Shown: positions 1,977 through 61,299 of the stretch, piece by piece
Layout: every line of letters starts with the position of its first letter
Numbering within the stretch: position 1 is the first letter of the stretch
Sequence record: MT119360.1
DNA length: 64,000 bases
Strand: one strand, 5' to 3'
DNA from: Enterococcus phage nattely
Notes under the pieces: generated by a model
Told to the model about the DNA's origin: nothing
Seen by the model: only the letters and a program-made list of their open reading frames with translations
Database searches by the model: none
Program-made: the position numbers and the translations under genes

Positions 1977-3553
1977 GCACCATGGAGTTAACATTAAATC
2001 CGACAAGAGCGATTTATAATTTTTTTGGCTCTGTAATGAAATCACCGGAAATTTTGAAAGCACCTGAAATTATTTTAGGTGACCGTGATTTTGTTCAATC
2101 ATTTCATAAAATTGTTTATGCAGCATTGAATAACATTATTTTTAGTAATAGAGATAATATTAGTGATATTAGTCCAATTGATGTGGATAATTATCTTGCT
2201 AAGTATCCAAACTATTATCGAGTTTGGGAAGAAAATAATGGTGTTGAATATTTAAATAATGCAAAACAAGTTTCAAACACTCAAATTGCGACAAAAGACT
2301 ATGAAACAATTAAAAAATTTAGTTTATTAAGAAACTATGTTGAAAATGGTATTGATGTTTCAGATATTTATGAATATGATAGCAATGATTTAGGAGCATT
2401 AACAGAGAGTAATAAAGTATTAGAAAATACAAGTATCAACGAAATTATTGAACATTTCACACAAAAAGCAATTGAGATTCGAAATGAGTGGAATGTTGAT
2501 GATGGGAAAGTTAAAGATTTTAAAGCTGGTGATGACTTAGATGGACTTTTGGATCGTTTAGTTGAGAACCCAGATTTAGGTTTTCCATTTCAGAACTTAA
2601 TGTATAATACACTTTTTCGTGGAATGCGCAAAGAGAAATTTATGTTGAGATCGGGTGCAACGGGTACTGGTAAAACTAGACAAGCAATAAGAGATATGGT
2701 ATCAATTGCTTGTGATAAAATTTGGGTCACAGGATTAGGTTGGAAAAGTTTGGGTCCTTCATTTCCAGCATTGTTTATATCAACCGAAATTGAACAAGAA
2801 GAATTACAAACAATTATGTTAGCATATTTAACTGGAATTCCAGACTCTGATATTAAAAATGGTAACTATGATACGGCAACACGTAAGAGATTAGAAGAGG
2901 CAATTGAGATTTTGAAGAAAGCGCCTTTATTCATGACTTACATTGAGGACTTCTCAATCAGTGATATTGAAATGAAAATTGAAGAGTATATTGTCAAAGA
3001 AAACGTACAATATGTTGCATTTGACTATGTTCAAATGACGCCAAAATTGAGTAAAACAATGAATGATAATTTTGGAACAACTTTGCGTGAAGATCAAATT
3101 TTAGTTCATTTTTCGTCAGCATTAAAAGGTATTGCTGGTCGTTATGGAATTTTTCTTGAAAGTAGTACACAATTAAATAGAGGTAGTAAAGAAATCGAAA
3201 ATCGTGATGCATCTTCACTTCGTGGAGGTTTAGCGACAGCTGATAAGGTCGATTATGGTATTTTAACATTTAAAGTTTCTCAGAAAGAAAAAGATGGATT
3301 AAAACATATTTTGCAGCAAGGTTTTGGTGGAGATATTCAAAAAACACCGGATTTTTCACATTGGGTTTATAAAAATCGTGCTGGTTTAGACCATGTTGTA
3401 ATTTGGACAAAAATGAATTTGGGAACAATGCGTGAAGAAGTATTATTTGTAACTGATTATGATTTTAATTTAATTGAGATAAATGGAACTGAAATTGAAT
3501 TTGAAAGTGTTGATACAATGCCAGAAGAAATTGAAAATGTTCCAGTATTTTAG
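1973..3553 (+). CDS. DnaB-like replicative DNA helicase
   Basis: Walker A RSGATGTGKT in the C-terminal RecA-like domain after an N-terminal helical domain; 526 aa. Confidence 0.75.
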   Translation: MSTMELTLNPTRAIYNFFGSVMKSPEILKAPEIILGDRDFVQSFHKIVYAALNNIIFSNRDNISDISPIDVDNYLAKYPNYYRVWEENNGVEYLNNAKQVSNTQIATKDYETIKKFSLLRNYVENGIDVSDIYEYDSNDLGALTESNKVLENTSINEIIEHFTQKAIEIRNEWNVDDGKVKDFKAGDDLDGLLDRLVENPDLGFPFQNLMYNTLFRGMRKEKFMLRSGATGTGKTRQAIRDMVSIACDKIWVTGLGWKSLGPSFPALFISTEIEQEELQTIMLAYLTGIPDSDIKNGNYDTATRKRLEEAIEILKKAPLFMTYIEDFSISDIEMKIEEYIVKENVQYVAFDYVQMTPKLSKTMNDNFGTTLREDQILVHFSSALKGIAGRYGIFLESSTQLNRGSKEIENRDASSLRGGLATADKVDYGILTFKVSQKEKDGLKHILQQGFGGDIQKTPDFSHWVYKNRAGLDHVVIWTKMNLGTMREEVLFVTDYDFNLIEINGTEIEFESVDTMPEEIENVPVF

Positions 3554-32667: not shown

Positions 32668-32733
32668 GAAGAAAAATAGTGTATAATAATAATATAGCCT
32701 TTGGGCTAACAAATATATTTGGAGAGTGATATC

Positions 32734-32922
32734 ATGGTTCAAGTAGCAAAAGTAGCATATACTGGTGAAGAACAAGATTTACCATTAGATGTAACGGAGA
32801 AAAATTTATTCGCCGGCGCTGTAACAAAATCAACAGTTAAAGAAGCTATTGATGAAGCAGCAGCTTTGGATAAAAAAGAATTACACCCAACGACAACAAC
32901 TACGACGACAGTTGGTGGTTAA
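32734..32922 (+). CDS. small protein ending in poly-Thr-VGG (same tail motif as the tail tube and capsid extension)
   Basis: ...KKELHPTTTTTTTVGG stop; GGAGAG RBS before ATG 32734 (track starts at TTG 32719); followed by the terminator ggaccgaagtcc plus T-run at about 32930. Confidence 0.55.
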   Translation: MVQVAKVAYTGEEQDLPLDVTEKNLFAGAVTKSTVKEAIDEAAALDKKELHPTTTTTTTVGG

Positions 32923-52043: not shown

Positions 52044-52685
52044 TTAACCACCAATTGTAGTGGTAGTTGTTGTCGTAGTTGCTTTAGTGGTTGTTGTAGT
52101 TGTCACAGGATCAGTTGTAGTTGCTCCGTAAACTTTCTCGAACCATGCTTTAATAACTTCTTTATCAGCACCTGGTGCATCCTCGTTAACTGAAGCTCTC
52201 CAATCACCATTGAACACAGTTGGTAAAAATGTACCAGTGATAGTTGTAGTTTGGAATGTGATAGAATCTTCCTTAGTTTGGTAAGAATCTTCACCAACAC
52301 CAAATGAACCTTTGTATAATACTACATATTTGTAAGTTCCATTTGATTTTAAAGAACGAAACGCTAATGCAACACGTGGCGCAACTTTGTTTACGTTATC
52401 ATGAACAACGCCTTTTTCGTCAATTTCGATACCCATTAAACGAGCAACGATTTCGTCCTTAATGTCTGCTGTTTCTAATTCAACTTCAATTGAGCTAATT
52501 GTTTGATTAGAAATTAAAGCAATATCGTCCGCATAGAATGCGTCATCAGATGTTGACGGTGAAATTGAAGCACTAACAGCAGGAGCGATCTTAAACGGTG
52601 CTCCATATGCTAAATTCCCTTTTTCGTCATTTTTTAATTCGAATGCATATAAGTCACTCAAACCAATACGTACTGTATCTTCCAT
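52044..52685 (-). CDS. major tail (tube) protein with C-terminal poly-Thr tail ending in IGG
   Basis: 213 aa in the tail-tube position; C-terminus ...GATTTDPVTTTTTTKATTTTTTTTIGG stop. Confidence 0.65.
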   Translation of the reverse strand: MEDTVRIGLSDLYAFELKNDEKGNLAYGAPFKIAPAVSASISPSTSDDAFYADDIALISNQTISSIEVELETADIKDEIVARLMGIEIDEKGVVHDNVNKVAPRVALAFRSLKSNGTYKYVVLYKGSFGVGEDSYQTKEDSITFQTTTITGTFLPTVFNGDWRASVNEDAPGADKEVIKAWFEKVYGATTTDPVTTTTTTKATTTTTTTTIGG

Positions 52686-54453: not shown

Positions 54454-55341
54454 TTATTTTTTAACTTTTTTAATCGCTTGGACGTACTTATATGAGCAAA
54501 AATCTTTAGAAATATGTGAAAAATCATCAAAAAATGGCGTATTTTTAACATATTTTCCTTTAAAAAATAGCTCTTTTCTGTCCTCAGTGACTCCTGCGTT
54601 ATGAAAAATCTTATATTTTTCCCAATTTTCGATTGGATCTGTTGCCCAATTGAAGATAAAATCATCAGAAGTTAACGGTTTATAGTTAAATAGAACCATA
54701 TTCCAGCACTGAGACCACATTTCAGCGGTCCAAGTTTGTAAATTTGTATCAATTGTTGCAAAATAACGCCAGAGTGTATTAGAATCGTGATAAACTTTTT
54801 CCCAGAACTCTTTTTTTGGCTTATTTACTAAAACTTGTGCTCCTAGGTGCAGTCCTAGGTGTTCGTTCAACTGATCTTCTGATATTCCTATAATGTCTAA
54901 CATTTTATTTGCAATCTGAGGACCATTTTCGCAACCTTTTATATAATCTAAAGAAAGATAACCAGAACAATCTGAACCGATCCATTCATTATCTTTTAAT
55001 TGAGGAATATTTGGTATTTCTCTGAAGATAACGTCAGAATCAATATAAAGAAATTGTTCTTTTTCCATTTCTGGATTCTCTTCTAAAAATTTCCACCATA
55101 AATATGGTCGAATAGAAGGGATATATCCTTTATATTCTCTATTATCTTCATATCGATAAATAGAAATGTGAGGATATTTTTGTTTTAACCTTTCAGAAAT
55201 TGAAGGGTCAAAACTAGCAAATAATACATAAATATCTTTAATATTATGCTCTAATAAATTTGTGATTGCAACTTCTAATTCCCATTCGAAACGAACTATT
55301 TCTGGTTGGGCAAATAATACTTTCATTTTTCTAGTTCTCAC
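54454..55341 (-). CDS. GT-A fold glycosyltransferase (DxD motif) inside the structural module
   Basis: 295 aa; YIDSDVIF DxD motif after an N-terminal Rossmann-like region. Confidence 0.55.
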   Translation of the reverse strand: MRTRKMKVLFAQPEIVRFEWELEVAITNLLEHNIKDIYVLFASFDPSISERLKQKYPHISIYRYEDNREYKGYIPSIRPYLWWKFLEENPEMEKEQFLYIDSDVIFREIPNIPQLKDNEWIGSDCSGYLSLDYIKGCENGPQIANKMLDIIGISEDQLNEHLGLHLGAQVLVNKPKKEFWEKVYHDSNTLWRYFATIDTNLQTWTAEMWSQCWNMVLFNYKPLTSDDFIFNWATDPIENWEKYKIFHNAGVTEDRKELFFKGKYVKNTPFFDDFSHISKDFCSYKYVQAIKKVKK

Positions 55342-55449
55342 CTTTCAATTTCTAATTTTTATATATGTAAATTGAAGATGGACGAATTAGCATCCACCTT
55401 CAATAGTGAAAAATTTATGTTTCATACTCAACCTACCAGGACGCCAACA

Positions 55450-55589
55450 CTACCCGCCGGGGGTGACGGTGGTAGTTGTTGTAGTCGTTGGTTTAACCGT
55501 TGTCGTCGTCGTAGTTGTTGAAGTCGACGTCGTTGTTGTGGTTGTCGGTTTGACAGTAGTTGTCGTTGTTGTAGTAGGCTGAGGTGTTA
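55450..55589 (-). CDS. putative -1 frameshift C-terminal extension of the major capsid protein (poly-Thr ending in PGG)
   Basis: the -1 frame after capsid stop TAA (55587-55589) encodes VTPQPTTTTTTVKPTTTTTTSTSTTTTTTVKPTTTTTTTVTPGG with stop at 55450-55452; that frame has no start codon and opens 9 codons before the capsid stop; slippery A-AAG at the stop. Confidence 0.45.
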
Positions 55590-56789
55590 CTTTGCTGTTG
55601 CCACTACTAAAGCGTTAGGATTGTAAACTTCTCCATCCATGTAAGTGTCTAAGATAGATAATTGTCCACCAGCTAAAGCTTGTGTTGTATCTTGTGTTAC
55701 GTTAATCAAGTTCATACCTTTTTTGATCAACATACCATAACCAGCTTGGAAGTTACCAAATACAATTTTATCTGCATTTTCGCCAGTTAAAACATCAGAT
55801 ACGTGTACTGGGCATCCAAATAGAGAATAGCCAGGTTTACCGTCAACTAATCCACGGAAGATTAAGAATGTTCCGTCACCGTCTTTTAATTGCATAACTT
55901 TGTTGAACATTGGACGGCTCATTACCCACATAGAACCTTCTAAATATCCTGGGTTTAAAGTACCATAAATGTTCAATAAGTCTGGCACGTCGATGGCTTT
56001 AGCGACATCAAGAGTTAAAACATTTTTATCGCCAATAACTGGACGGAATGCTTCGTCTTCGTTTTCGCCATCTTTAGGTCCAACTAAGATTCCACGTTCA
56101 ATTGTTTTAGCAACAGAACGAGCTAAGCGACCTTGAGCATAACTAACAATATCAACACCAGAATCGTTGATCAATTGTTGAGTTAATTGAATTGCTGCAC
56201 CAACACGTTTTTGGTTAAGTGTTACTGCTTTCAATTTAGGTTGTAATTTGTTTGCGTCTACAGTTTCACCGATGAAACCTTCGTCAAAGTTACCGTCTTC
56301 ACGAGCGATTTTCAAATTACCAGTTACAGATGTGAATTTACGAGCTGCTTCGAACACAGGTGAAGTTTCGCCTAATAATTCAACAATTTCATTGTGAATT
56401 TGTGTAGGTACTAAAAATTCTCCTAATGGATTTGCGTTGTTCGCAGTTGTATTTTCACTATTTGAGTAAGTAATGTCACGCAATTCTTCCCCTTCGCGAC
56501 GACGTAAAAATTGTTCCATGCCGCGTAATTCGACTTCTTTTGTAATTTCTTTTTCCATCTTTGTTTCTCCTCCGATTGTTTCGACATCTGCATCAGCTAA
56601 TGAACGAACTTCTTTAATTTGTTTGATAGACGCATCTAAATCTGCGACTTCGCTTTTAATTTCTGAAATACGACTTAATTCACTTTCGTCAAAAGCACGA
56701 GTTTCTGCTTCAACTTTATCAGCAACTTCGCTCATTTCTTGAACTAATGCGTTGCGTTTTTCCAACATTGCTTTTAAATTAATTTCCAT
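55587..56789 (-). CDS. major capsid protein (HK97 fold) with N-terminal coiled-coil delta/scaffold-like domain
   Basis: 400 aa directly after the prohead protease gene; N-terminal coiled coil. Confidence 0.75.
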   Translation of the reverse strand: MEINLKAMLEKRNALVQEMSEVADKVEAETRAFDESELSRISEIKSEVADLDASIKQIKEVRSLADADVETIGGETKMEKEITKEVELRGMEQFLRRREGEELRDITYSNSENTTANNANPLGEFLVPTQIHNEIVELLGETSPVFEAARKFTSVTGNLKIAREDGNFDEGFIGETVDANKLQPKLKAVTLNQKRVGAAIQLTQQLINDSGVDIVSYAQGRLARSVAKTIERGILVGPKDGENEDEAFRPVIGDKNVLTLDVAKAIDVPDLLNIYGTLNPGYLEGSMWVMSRPMFNKVMQLKDGDGTFLIFRGLVDGKPGYSLFGCPVHVSDVLTGENADKIVFGNFQAGYGMLIKKGMNLINVTQDTTQALAGGQLSILDTYMDGEVYNPNALVVATAK

Positions 56790-57957
56790 TCTCTGGAACC
56801 TCCATAATTTTATTATTTTCTAACCAAGCTCTAACTTCTGCTTGTACATCAGGCTTTTTCGTGGTTGTTGTCGTTGTTTCTGGTTCAGCTGCTGTTTCCG
56901 CTTTACCTTCTTCAACTTTCGTTTCGGCAACTGGTGTTTCTTCCGCTTTTTGTTCAGTTTCGTCAACACGAGTTTCTTCACTCGGTTCTTCAACTTTAGC
57001 CTCAGCTTTAGGCTCACCATTTTCGTCCTCAACAACGGCTTTTGTACCGTCTTCAGTTTTTTCAACTTTAGCTTTTTCTTCAGTAACAGGTTCTTCAACC
57101 TTTTCTTCAGTTACTTTTTCTTCAACAGTTGGTGTTGGTTCAGTTGGTTGGGCTGGAGTTGCAGCAGCTGCTGTAGGGTCCATTGGTGGAACTTGTGCAC
57201 TTGCAACTTGTGAAACTTGTTCCATTACCTGTTTCGCCATTTCCAATCCATCAAATGCGGACTTATCTACAATTTCTTGTAATAATTTATTTGTGTCTGC
57301 TTGATTCATTGCTAAAGTTGAAATAGCATCATACAACATTTTTGGTGTTACTTCCATATTGTCTGTATTCAAACCATTTCCTCCTATAAGAGCTCTAAAC
57401 TCCAGATCATTCGGAATTTCAACGTCAGCTACTTCCATACCGCGTGCCTCCAATAAAGTAGTTGGATATGCGGGAGTTTTTAGTGCTGAAACTTCAAATA
57501 GTTCAATTTCACTAATAGTTCGAAGTGGCATTCCGTCTGCAGCTAAAGACCAATCTTCATTTAATACTTTCATACCAAAAGAAAGACCTTTAATAATTCC
57601 ATCTTTTACTAATACATATAAGTCTCGTCCGTAACTTGTTGGAGACACAGTTGCTTCAAAATAAAGACCAACTTCGTCTTCTTCCAATTTTAACGAGCCA
57701 TTTGCAGTAGATGCTAAAATCTTTTTAGTATCATGATCGGCAAGTAAATCGATACTTTCTTTCAAGCGTTTTGCTTTTGCAATTGCATTTCTGAAAGTTC
57801 CTGGAGCAATTACTTCTCTCCATTTTTTCTTACCTTCTTTGCCAAGGATGTGACTTGATGCGTCAGTTGCTACATATCCTTGCAATTTCATTTCTTTCGA
57901 CTCTTCATCAACATCATTGATGTTCAAATCAAGAGCACGAACTTCAATTCCATCCAC
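56779..57957 (-). CDS. prohead protease (HK97 S78-type) fused to E/K/T-rich scaffold-like C-terminus
   Basis: N-terminal protease domain with GYVATDASSH...FGMKVLNEDW...EVSALKTPAYP; C-terminal low-complexity acidic region with a TTTTTT run. Confidence 0.65.
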   Translation of the reverse strand: MDGIEVRALDLNINDVDEESKEMKLQGYVATDASSHILGKEGKKKWREVIAPGTFRNAIAKAKRLKESIDLLADHDTKKILASTANGSLKLEEDEVGLYFEATVSPTSYGRDLYVLVKDGIIKGLSFGMKVLNEDWSLAADGMPLRTISEIELFEVSALKTPAYPTTLLEARGMEVADVEIPNDLEFRALIGGNGLNTDNMEVTPKMLYDAISTLAMNQADTNKLLQEIVDKSAFDGLEMAKQVMEQVSQVASAQVPPMDPTAAAATPAQPTEPTPTVEEKVTEEKVEEPVTEEKAKVEKTEDGTKAVVEDENGEPKAEAKVEEPSEETRVDETEQKAEETPVAETKVEEGKAETAAEPETTTTTTKKPDVQAEVRAWLENNKIMEVPENGN

Positions 57958-60988: not shown

Positions 60989-61026
60989 AAGTAAACCTCC
61001 AATTAGATAGCTTTTATTAAGCCAAA

Positions 61027-61098
61027 CAGGTCGTAGAAGATTCGAACTCCTATCACTTGGGTTGGAGCCAAGTATGTTACCAATTACACCAACAACCT
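61027..61098 (-). tRNA. tRNA-Trp (anticodon CCA)
   Basis: folds by hand: acceptor AGGTTGT/ACGACCT (7 bp incl. G-U), U8, D-stem GTGT/ACAT, D-loop with GG and A14/A21, anticodon stem CTTGG/CCAAG with loop CTCCAAC (U33, CCA, A37), T-stem AGGAG/CTTCT, T-loop TTCGAAT, discriminator G; no encoded CCA. Confidence 0.6.
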
Positions 61099-61299
61099 AT
61101 GTGAAACTAAAAAGTTTCACTAAAAAAGAAAAAAAAGGAAGTTATGACTAGAAAAGTAGAAAGTAGAAAGGTGTTCAGAGAACACAATGATAGCCAATCG
61201 GAATCGCACCGATTCAAAAAGGCTTGTCAACCTTAATGTCTACTAAGAAGCTACCGCATTTAATGTTCCACCTTTAATGGCAGCGGGACGCCAATTTTA

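Follow-up and report, generated by a model that had tools for sequence, protein, structure and literature searches.

The window analyzed here is a 64,000-nucleotide stretch of the genome of Enterococcus phage nattely (MT119360.1), and its subject is the 3′ end of the major capsid protein gene, where a threonine-rich reading frame lies open past the stop codon in the −1 frame. The source is an Enterococcus siphophage of the genus Vipetofemvirus (VPE25/nattely-like), with 93 to 96% DNA identity between the window and phages vB_EfaS_140, VPE25, and VFW and 100% identity between its capsid protein and that of nattely. The head module runs on the minus strand in the order portal, prohead protease, major capsid protein, a gene for a 290-amino-acid protein, and head-tail connector. 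The features referred to below are as follows.

Minus strand: portal (PF04860)
56779..57957, minus strand: prohead protease fused to a scaffold-like region (PF04586, residues 14-173)
55587..56789, minus strand: major capsid protein, 400 amino acids, HK97 fold family (PF05065, E 9e-42; PHROG 10, major head protein)
55587..55596, minus strand: candidate recoding site A_GCA_AAG_UAA (from the sequence and relatives)
55450..55590, minus strand: −1 frame extension, 46 codons plus TAG (conserved in the −1 frame in relatives)
55371..55404, minus strand: 14-bp hairpin followed by UUU, terminator-like or mRNA-stabilizing (fold z −5.25)
54454..55326, minus strand: predicted GT-A fold, GT8-like glycosyltransferase, 290 amino acids (PHROG 4417; predicted model)
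52044..52685, minus strand: tail tube (major tail) protein with an in-frame poly-Thr tail at 52047..52121 (PF04630, PHROG 88)
61026..61099, minus strand: tRNA-Trp (anticodon CCA), also reported for vB_EfaS_140

The threonine-rich −1 frame at the capsid gene end

The capsid open reading frame (ORF) ends ...GCA ACA GCA AAG TAA, and the −1 frame that starts at the G of AAG (55590) reads VTPQPTTTTTTTVKPTTTTTTSTSTTTTTTTVKPTTTTTTTVTPGG, a run of 46 amino acids closed by a TAG at 55450-55452. It is composed of VTPQP, poly-Thr, and TPGG, with approximately 32 Thr or Ser residues in its 46 codons (70% Thr+Ser), and joined to the capsid protein it would give a predicted trans-frame form of 446 amino acids. 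Upstream of the extension the −1 frame is closed by a TAA 9 codons away, and ATG, GTG, and TTG are all absent from there to its end. The initial annotation had pointed to this gene end, to its Thr-rich −1 frame, and to the lack of a start codon below the TAA; direct reading of the sequence and a frame scan bear these points out, and the translation given there was exact apart from one T missing in two of the runs. The open −1 frame carries no significance by itself, since the 0 frame past the capsid stop is also open, for 52 codons, in this A/C-rich stretch. What sets the extension beyond chance is its Thr+Ser composition, the fact that all relatives keep it in the −1 frame, and the way its substitutions are spread over the codon positions.

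Conservation was assessed across six Vipetofemvirus, three Denvervirus (Planchet, 9183, and an 89.5-kb IMG/VR contig), and metagenomic relatives with capsid identities of 85, 68, 63, 62, and 61%; Denvervirus and the window share approximately 73% DNA and 79% protein identity. The Thr-rich −1 extension is kept in every relative compared, over a range from approximately 61% to 100% capsid identity, and the comparison with related phages that the initial annotation had proposed as a check thus comes out in its favor. Neither the 0 nor the +1 frame is conserved, and both end early in many relatives; past the stop, the 0 frame closes after 0 to 26 codons (10 in Planchet; 6 to 41 in others). When the extensions of close relatives are aligned, 20 nucleotide columns vary, of which 18 fall at position 3 of the −1 codons, 2 at position 2, and 0 at position 1, leaving 17 purely synonymous codon columns and 2 that change the amino acid, although the low complexity of the (ACN)n repeat makes such alignment-based statistics less independent than apparent and counts to that extent against a translated −1 frame. 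The third base of a −1 codon is the second base of a 0-frame codon, and therefore the same substitutions always alter the product of 0-frame read-through. The two indels in this alignment measure 9 and 3 nucleotides.

The metagenomic relative with 85% capsid identity (L098) has the junction GCA AAG TAG and a 142-codon −1 frame comprising KVDPQP, approximately 40 Thr/Ser, and a Pfam Big_2 domain (E 2.7e-12). The end of this −1 extension was cut down by the gene caller to an orphan 85-amino-acid "Big_2" gene (L098 3874..4131), an instance of how recoded extensions are mis-annotated in metagenomic gene catalogues. The arrangement of NCA_AAG plus stop is not a one-off, because it occurs as well in locus L045, where a PF05065 capsid gene (protein approximately 20% identical) ends TCA AAG TAA and is followed by a 49-codon −1 frame reading K-V-T-T-T-T... 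and then by a glycosyltransferase gene.

Farther out in the capsid family the −1 extension takes other forms, being an Ig-like (Big_2) region in L105 (53% identity) and a short peptide in L104 (56% identity), neither of them poly-Thr. No −1 Thr extension was found in the capsid relatives at approximately 40% identity (Lactobacillus phage Lenus, Geobacillus GR1, Staphylococcus BE22, and PT1-1), and the extension is thus not universal in the family; a terminator-type hairpin directly follows the capsid stop in three of these four, and Lenus has a separate FN3 gene. Two relatives at 56 to 57% capsid identity, L102 (3739) and L103 (3718), end in ACT CCC TAA or ACG CCC TAA, like the CCC_UGA +1 "shifty stop" of Listeria phages, and the +1 frame of L102 is open for approximately 80 codons that include an acidic region and a SAP-like motif (LLVSEIKAELDNRGIDYEG). 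Judging from these gene ends, the same capsid lineage seems to use −1 as well as +1 recoding at its 3′ end.

Beyond the extension lies a hairpin (55371..55404) with a 14-bp stem, and the 66-nucleotide stretch containing it folds at −19.2 kcal/mol (z −5.25). The initial annotation had reported an 11-bp stem-loop at about 55385-55415; the structure is real and does follow the extension, but it is larger than described, is displaced to these coordinates, and is not in the position of a stimulator. It starts 46 nucleotides past the stop of the extension and approximately 185 nucleotides past the slip site, too far downstream to act as a frameshift stimulator. A strict scan for intrinsic terminators on the minus strand did not call it, as its U-tract is weak, and its most plausible role is that of a terminator-like element or a stabilizer of the capsid transcript. 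A hairpin with an unrelated sequence occupies the equivalent place in Planchet (z −4.2), and in both genera the hairpin comes behind the extension and not behind the 0-frame stop, which fits a coding extension.

The slip site and a candidate −1 frameshift

At the junction itself, A_AAG (55590-55593) conforms to Z_ZZN, the minimal −1 slip site, of which A_AAG is named in particular and for which the Bacillus subtilis cdd gene (A_CGA_AAG) and IS1222 (G_CGA_AAG) provide natural cases (PMC5009743). The relatives carry a range of junctions: C_CCA_AAA in L002, L003, L097, L099, and L100 (in full C_CCA_AAA_GCG_TAG in Denvervirus, L099, and L100); A_AAA_AAA in L101, L104, and L105 (in full A_AAA_AAA_GCG_TAG, A_AAA_AAA_TAG, and A_AAA_AAA_TTG_TAG, respectively); A_AAA_AAC in L106 (A_AAA_AAC_CTG_TAG); and GCA_AAG plus stop in Vipetofemvirus and L098. 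As far as the sequences tell, the motif varies among relatives yet remains slippery throughout.

A direct reading of the genome of Lactobacillus phage A2 provides a close parallel. Its 400-amino-acid PF05065 capsid gene ends ACC CCA AAA GCG TAA, and the −1 frame continues as P-K-S-V-T-P-D-G followed by Ig-like sequence. When C_CCA_AAA_GCG_TAA of A2 is set against GCC CCA AAA GCG TAG of Denvervirus (giving P-K-S-V-E-P-T-T-T), the same cassette is seen at the same position. The site in the window looks like a shortened derivative of such a C_CCA_AAA_GCG_UAR cassette, in which the heptamer is gone, A_AAG is left, and the stop has moved to stand adjacent to it.

We propose that most ribosomes would stop at the UAA and release the 400-amino-acid capsid protein. 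In some, with the UAA (55587-55589) in the A site and termination slow relative to sense decoding, the peptidyl-tRNA-Lys would move back from AAG (55590-55592) to AAA (55591-55593), in the manner of a "shifty stop." The tRNA-Ala on GCA could not re-pair on AGC, so this would be slippage of a single tRNA. GUA (Val) would be read next, and translation of 46 codons in the −1 frame would yield a 446-amino-acid capsid form with an exposed, disordered tail; frameshifting would in this way limit the number of capsid subunits that bear the long tail. Slippage itself and its efficiency are what we infer here, starting from an anatomy, a conservation, and a coding signature that can be read directly in the genomes.

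Several observations weigh against this proposal. The canonical heptamer X_XXY_YYZ is absent from the window, where the site reads A_GCA_AAG, and slippage relying on tRNA-Lys alone may have a low efficiency. Downstream of the slip site, the search for a stimulatory RNA structure came up empty, as the folds of 95 to 147 nucleotides in four phages do not surpass those of shuffled sequences (z −0.4 to −1.8), and inspection of the upstream region gave no clear Shine-Dalgarno-like element. The efficiency of frameshifting is probably low, because a stimulator of this kind is lacking; the UAA directly adjoining AAG does belong among the possible stimulatory elements of this class of sites. Apart from this, no phage tRNA able to affect Lys or Thr decoding was found, the tRNA-Trp being the only tRNA in the window. 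The slip of tRNA-Lys at A_AAG plus stop that the initial annotation had put forward is thus favored by the comparative evidence, while the site is a tetranucleotide plus stop and not the classic heptamer. Its minor long capsid form with a Thr tail finds support in the −1 conservation, the synonymous pattern, the Big_2 domain of L098, and the likeness to the A2 cassette, and we consider it highly probable that the phage makes such a form by −1 programmed frameshifting.

Other explanations of the −1 frame account for fewer of these observations. The Thr-rich frame might be an untranslated relic, an ancestral in-frame tail that was cut off by a frameshift mutation and now serves as spacer DNA. 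The missing start codon and heptamer in the window, the lack of a stimulatory structure after the slip site, and the capsid ends at TAA in all public annotations are as a relic would have them, as is the open 0 frame of 52 codons, which indicates that composition alone keeps frames open. But a relic would need to have held the same −1 relation from approximately 61% to 100% capsid identity despite differing slip motifs, to have changed almost only at −1 codon position 3 with indels only in multiples of 3, and to have retained an intact Big_2 domain in the −1 frame of L098, all of which makes it a very improbable account. Read-through of the UAA, which would yield a Gln/Arg/Leu-rich 0-frame extension instead of a Thr tail, could draw on the 52 open codons after the stop in this phage. 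In the relatives, however, the 0 frame closes at 0 to 26 codons (Planchet, 10; others, 6 to 41) with unconserved sequence, and the variable sites fall on 0-frame position 2, where the amino acid always changes; we give read-through practically no credence.

The shift could also be made by the RNA polymerase, through an extra A added in the A-run of the transcript and no ribosomal frameshifting. Runs of seven A's, which can support polymerase stuttering, do stand at the junctions of L101, L104, and L105. The window has only AAA before G and Denvervirus four A's, too short for known cases, and the conserved trait is the re-pairing potential of the tRNA with a nearby stop, not the length of the run; we therefore regard transcriptional slippage as very unlikely.

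A GT8-like enzyme next to poly-Thr tails

The gene 123 nucleotides downstream of the extension (54454..55326, minus strand) encodes the 290-amino-acid protein, a member of PHROG 4417 that is labeled "unknown function" or "hypothetical." An AlphaFold model built on 85 homologues (predicted local distance difference test score [pLDDT], 96.4) has a GT-A (Rossmann-like) fold closest to GT8 structures, and its nearest solved structures all belong to the GT8-clan GT-A enzymes: Skp1 alpha-galactosyltransferase (15.2), the UGGT catalytic domain (15.1), WbbM (14.6), GlyE (14.5), and glycogenin (14.5). The motifs D96-x-D98 and H242-x-x-G245 are invariant in the 85 sequences, and D96, D98, and H242 would correspond to D103, D105, and H244 of LgtC. 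The protein was identified by fold comparison alone, because sequence-level searches failed. Matches of phmmer to polyubiquitin in the PDB and of a profile search to TALE repeats were rejected as spurious and repeat driven. On the strength of the predicted structure, the protein models as a GT8-like GT-A glycosyltransferase.

Relatives of this enzyme are numerous, with at least 587 returned by a pattern scan of IMG/VR, and their genomic setting points to a link with poly-Thr tails. In an association test on the best 80 loci, 78 had enough upstream DNA, and a poly-Thr stretch (at least 6 Thr in 8 residues, encoded no more than 300 nucleotides upstream of the enzyme gene) was present in 72 of the 78 versus 48 of 1,190 control windows elsewhere in the same loci. 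The upstream poly-Thr proteins represent at least 14 unrelated C-terminal contexts, among them major capsid proteins (PF03864, PF05065), tail tubes (PF04630), and small FN3/Ig-like decoration proteins.

The tail tube protein of the window (52044..52685, minus strand) itself has an in-frame C-terminal poly-Thr tail, ending ...GATTTDPVTTTTTTKATTTTTTTTIGG (...TTTDPVTTTTTTKATTTTTTTTIGG) at its stop codon, and its homologue in Planchet ends ...GATTTDPVTTTSTTRQ at the stop. In Enterococcus phage phiFL2B, gp48 ends ...TTTTTSTTTTTTSSTTTTTTTQASSK and the enzyme homologue gp49 is directly next; in Staphylococcus phage PT1-1, the homologue is preceded by a tail tube protein that closes with an unbroken run of 16 Thr, and the capsid gene is without an extension. 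Poly-Thr tails fused in frame to capsid proteins are approximately 11 to 21 amino acids long in the loci covered, and recoded tails measure 31 to 52 amino acids, or 142 with Big_2. One could speculate that only some of the subunits can accommodate a long tail.

A few further observations concern these poly-Thr proteins. In GenBank, gp49 of phiFL2B (L009 3830..4738) is labeled "major tail protein," and gp48, in the usual tail tube position, is labeled "conserved hypothetical"; these names have probably been exchanged or wrongly assigned. The annotated "tail tube protein" of PT1-1 (L008 11254..12498) is 140 amino acids long and is preceded by a 246-amino-acid ORF with Cys-rich motifs, which looks like an inserted mobile or endonuclease-type gene, and the tail tube gene may be split. 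The replication-gene region of the window contains a 67-amino-acid ORF (32719..32922, plus strand) with a poly-Thr tail, ...KELHPTTTTTTTVGG at its stop, that finishes in "-GG" just as the capsid extension and the tail tube tail do. Conservation of this ORF is confined to Vipetofemvirus (6 records, 85 to 98% identity); the ORF has no Pfam or PHROG match and may encode a third acceptor protein. At L078 (approximately 2265..2430), a 215-codon ORF ends ...AATTTTTTTASK at its stop (AGT AAG TAG), and the poly-Thr goes on in the +1 frame (SSTTTTTTVAPTTTTTTTDAG, then a stop) before the glycosyltransferase gene; this junction might reflect recoding (+1 or −2), a mutation that arose recently, or faulty assembly.

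In the interpretation that we favor, the poly-Thr tail of the capsid would be the acceptor for O-glycosylation by the adjoining GT8-like enzyme, the in-frame poly-Thr tail of the tail tube would be a further substrate of this enzyme, and the virion would then bear a mucin-like glycopeptide coat. Genomic association and predicted fold together make glycosylation of the capsid tail by the neighboring enzyme somewhat the better bet, and the tail tube protein would probably be a second acceptor of the same enzyme. Three points weigh against the proposed modification. The 290-amino-acid protein has no Pfam match even at E 10, Glyco_transf_8 (PF01501) included; sequence and profile searches of the PDB gave no genuine similarity to solved structures; and, given the DNA glycosylation of VPE25-type phages, DNA is a conceivable substrate. 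The DNA of VPE25 and VFW carries glucosylated hydroxymethylcytosine, and extra sugar-transferase-like genes were noted in these phages by the authors who described it (PMC4999554).

The frameshift may be real with a tail that stays unglycosylated, serving simply as flexible "hair" or spacer or representing the linker to a distal Ig-like domain since lost, and with an enzyme that acts elsewhere, on glucosyl-hydroxymethylcytosine DNA or host wall polymers. The DNA chemistry of VPE25 and VFW would suit such an enzyme; the poly-Thr of L098 serves as a linker to Big_2, and in L105 and A2 Big_2 occurs with neither poly-Thr nor the enzyme. Against this stands the position of the enzyme gene after poly-Thr-tailed structural genes in 72 of 78 loci and in no fewer than 14 unrelated contexts, and such a gene is missing beside the capsid gene in relatives without poly-Thr (L104 and L105, as well as A2 over the 12 kb covered). 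A DNA substrate also fits less well with the homologue in the temperate phage phiFL2B (36.8 kb, with an integrase), which has no annotated hydroxymethylcytosine pathway, and in small temperate phages of this type the enzyme is always inside the structural module beside a poly-Thr tail. The structural neighbors of the enzyme, moreover, include GlyE, Skp1 galactosyltransferase, glycogenin, and UGGT, which act on glycoproteins. We judge an unglycosylated tail to be unlikely.

Overall, the gene end is best explained by a shifty-stop −1 slip that gives the 446-amino-acid form, with inferred glycosylation of its tail, and we hold this combined account, which is built from sequence comparison, to be likely. 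With only a slight lean in its favor, we further suggest a mobile two-part module widespread in Firmicutes phages, consisting of a poly-Thr acceptor tail on a major protein of the virion surface and a dedicated GT8-like enzyme that together would make a mucin-like O-glycan coat, with short tails encoded in frame and long capsid tails (31 to 142 amino acids) reached via recoding and so borne by a fraction of the subunits. It would constitute a second, mechanistically distinct system of virion glycosylation next to that of the mycobacteriophages, one found in enterococcal phages of therapeutic relevance (VPE25 group).

Relation to known systems and significance

In the account given in PMC5009743, frameshifting of capsid genes is established in the −1 direction for Listeria phages A118 and A500, for T3/T7, and for Lactobacillus phage A2, where experimental proof is reported for the major head protein gp5A/gp5B (Garcia et al. 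2004), and in the +1 direction for PSA. The window resembles A2 in having a 400-amino-acid PF05065 capsid with recoding at the last codons of the gene, in the residues after the shift (K-S-V-T-P in A2 and K-V-T-P in the window), and in an extension that is, or in the window is predicted to be, a surface add-on on a subset of subunits. Several points separate it from A2: the heptamer has shrunk to A_GCA_AAG and the stop adjoins it, no stem-loop turned up past the slip site, the tail is 46 amino acids of poly-Thr instead of an Ig-like (Big_2) domain, a glycosyltransferase gene comes next, and the two capsids are only approximately 25% identical over 150 amino acids.

The sites of cdd and IS1222 use an upstream Shine-Dalgarno-like stimulator. 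The window, unlike them, has no evident element of this type, and its stop comes right after AAG. It does share with both a tRNA-Lys slip from AAG to AAA in which the preceding tRNA re-pairs poorly in the P site, and with cdd a position near the gene end, where the protein is extended (PMC5009743). Two forms of a virion protein produced by 3′-end recoding, the longer of which decorates the surface, are likewise found in Listeria A118/A500 (−1) and PSA (+1), in T3/T7 gene 10A/10B, and in SPP1 gp17.1* (the "hairy tail") (PMC5009743; PMC5221750). The Listeria, T3/T7, and SPP1 systems differ from the window in that they involve other capsid lineages and slip sites, extensions that are Ig-like/FN3 or short peptides, and no linked modifying enzyme. 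The recoding in the window groups with the capsid C-terminal extensions of A2, A118, and T3/T7, from which it departs in its tetranucleotide-plus-stop site, low-complexity extension, and linked modifying enzyme.

For virion glycosylation the closest comparison is with mycobacteriophages (Che8, Corndog, and Myrna), in which phage enzymes O-glycosylate the capsid and tail tube (Freeman 2023, as related in PMC12363180 and PMC11256854). Capsid and tail tube are both targets there, and both carry a putative acceptor tail in the window; glycosylation is demonstrated in those phages, whereas here we propose it. Comparison with the Che8 glycosyltransferases gp108-110, which are GT2/GT25 enzymes, showed no homology (hhalign probabilities <1%). 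The Che8 enzymes lie at the far end of the genome from the structural genes, whereas the enzyme in the window adjoins the capsid gene, and the capsid and tail proteins of Che8 terminate in ...KTGS and ...SDGS, with neither poly-Thr nor a frameshift. On these sequence grounds, the modification proposed for the window is not a member of the Che8-type system. Among GT8 enzymes that glycosylate proteins, GlyE acts on the serine-rich repeat protein PsrP, extending an existing sugar and not starting on the peptide. According to its PDB annotation, GlyE is a GT8 glycosyltransferase of Streptococcus pneumoniae TIGR4. Unlike GlyE, glycogenin, and Skp1 alpha-galactosyltransferase, the enzyme in the window has no PF01501 match, and its identity to its structural neighbors is 9 to 16%.

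Capsid frameshifting as such is known; the module of a poly-Thr tail with a GT8-like enzyme and its delivery by recoding appear to be undescribed. A search for literature on PHROG 4417, on poly-Thr tails of phage proteins, and on frameshifting or glycosylated virions among VPE25-type phages returned nothing relevant, nor any proteomic data for Vipetofemvirus or Denvervirus, within a coverage that is incomplete and so gives no proof of absence. In all six of the inspected genome records from Vipetofemvirus and Denvervirus, as in the metagenomic gene calls, the capsid ends at the 0-frame stop, and the glycosyltransferase is labeled "hypothetical." If the interpretation is correct, the descriptions of VPE25, 9183, and Planchet, phages studied for therapy of vancomycin-resistant enterococci, omit a virion component and a probable surface modification.

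Virion glycans change antibody recognition in mycobacteriophages, and a glycan coat on enterococcal phages, if real, would bear on immunogenicity, mucus persistence, and pharmacokinetics. In addition, the lineage offers a natural series of interchangeable slip sites on the same extension, from canonical heptamers to bare A_AAG plus stop, that would be useful for testing the shift requirements of the Gram-positive ribosome. The poly-Thr tail and its enzyme form a compact cassette that could be used to glycosylate or display cargo on phage surfaces.

Two minor observations concern the prohead protease gene upstream, which overlaps the capsid start by 11 nucleotides. The C-terminal half of its product is long, rich in Glu, Lys, Pro, Thr, and Ala, and probably a scaffold, with a TTTTTT run within it at 56851..56877. 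The vipetofem record annotates a 34-bp "repeat_region" both in the protease gene region and in the Thr extension, which is most simply explained by Thr-codon repeats common to both places.

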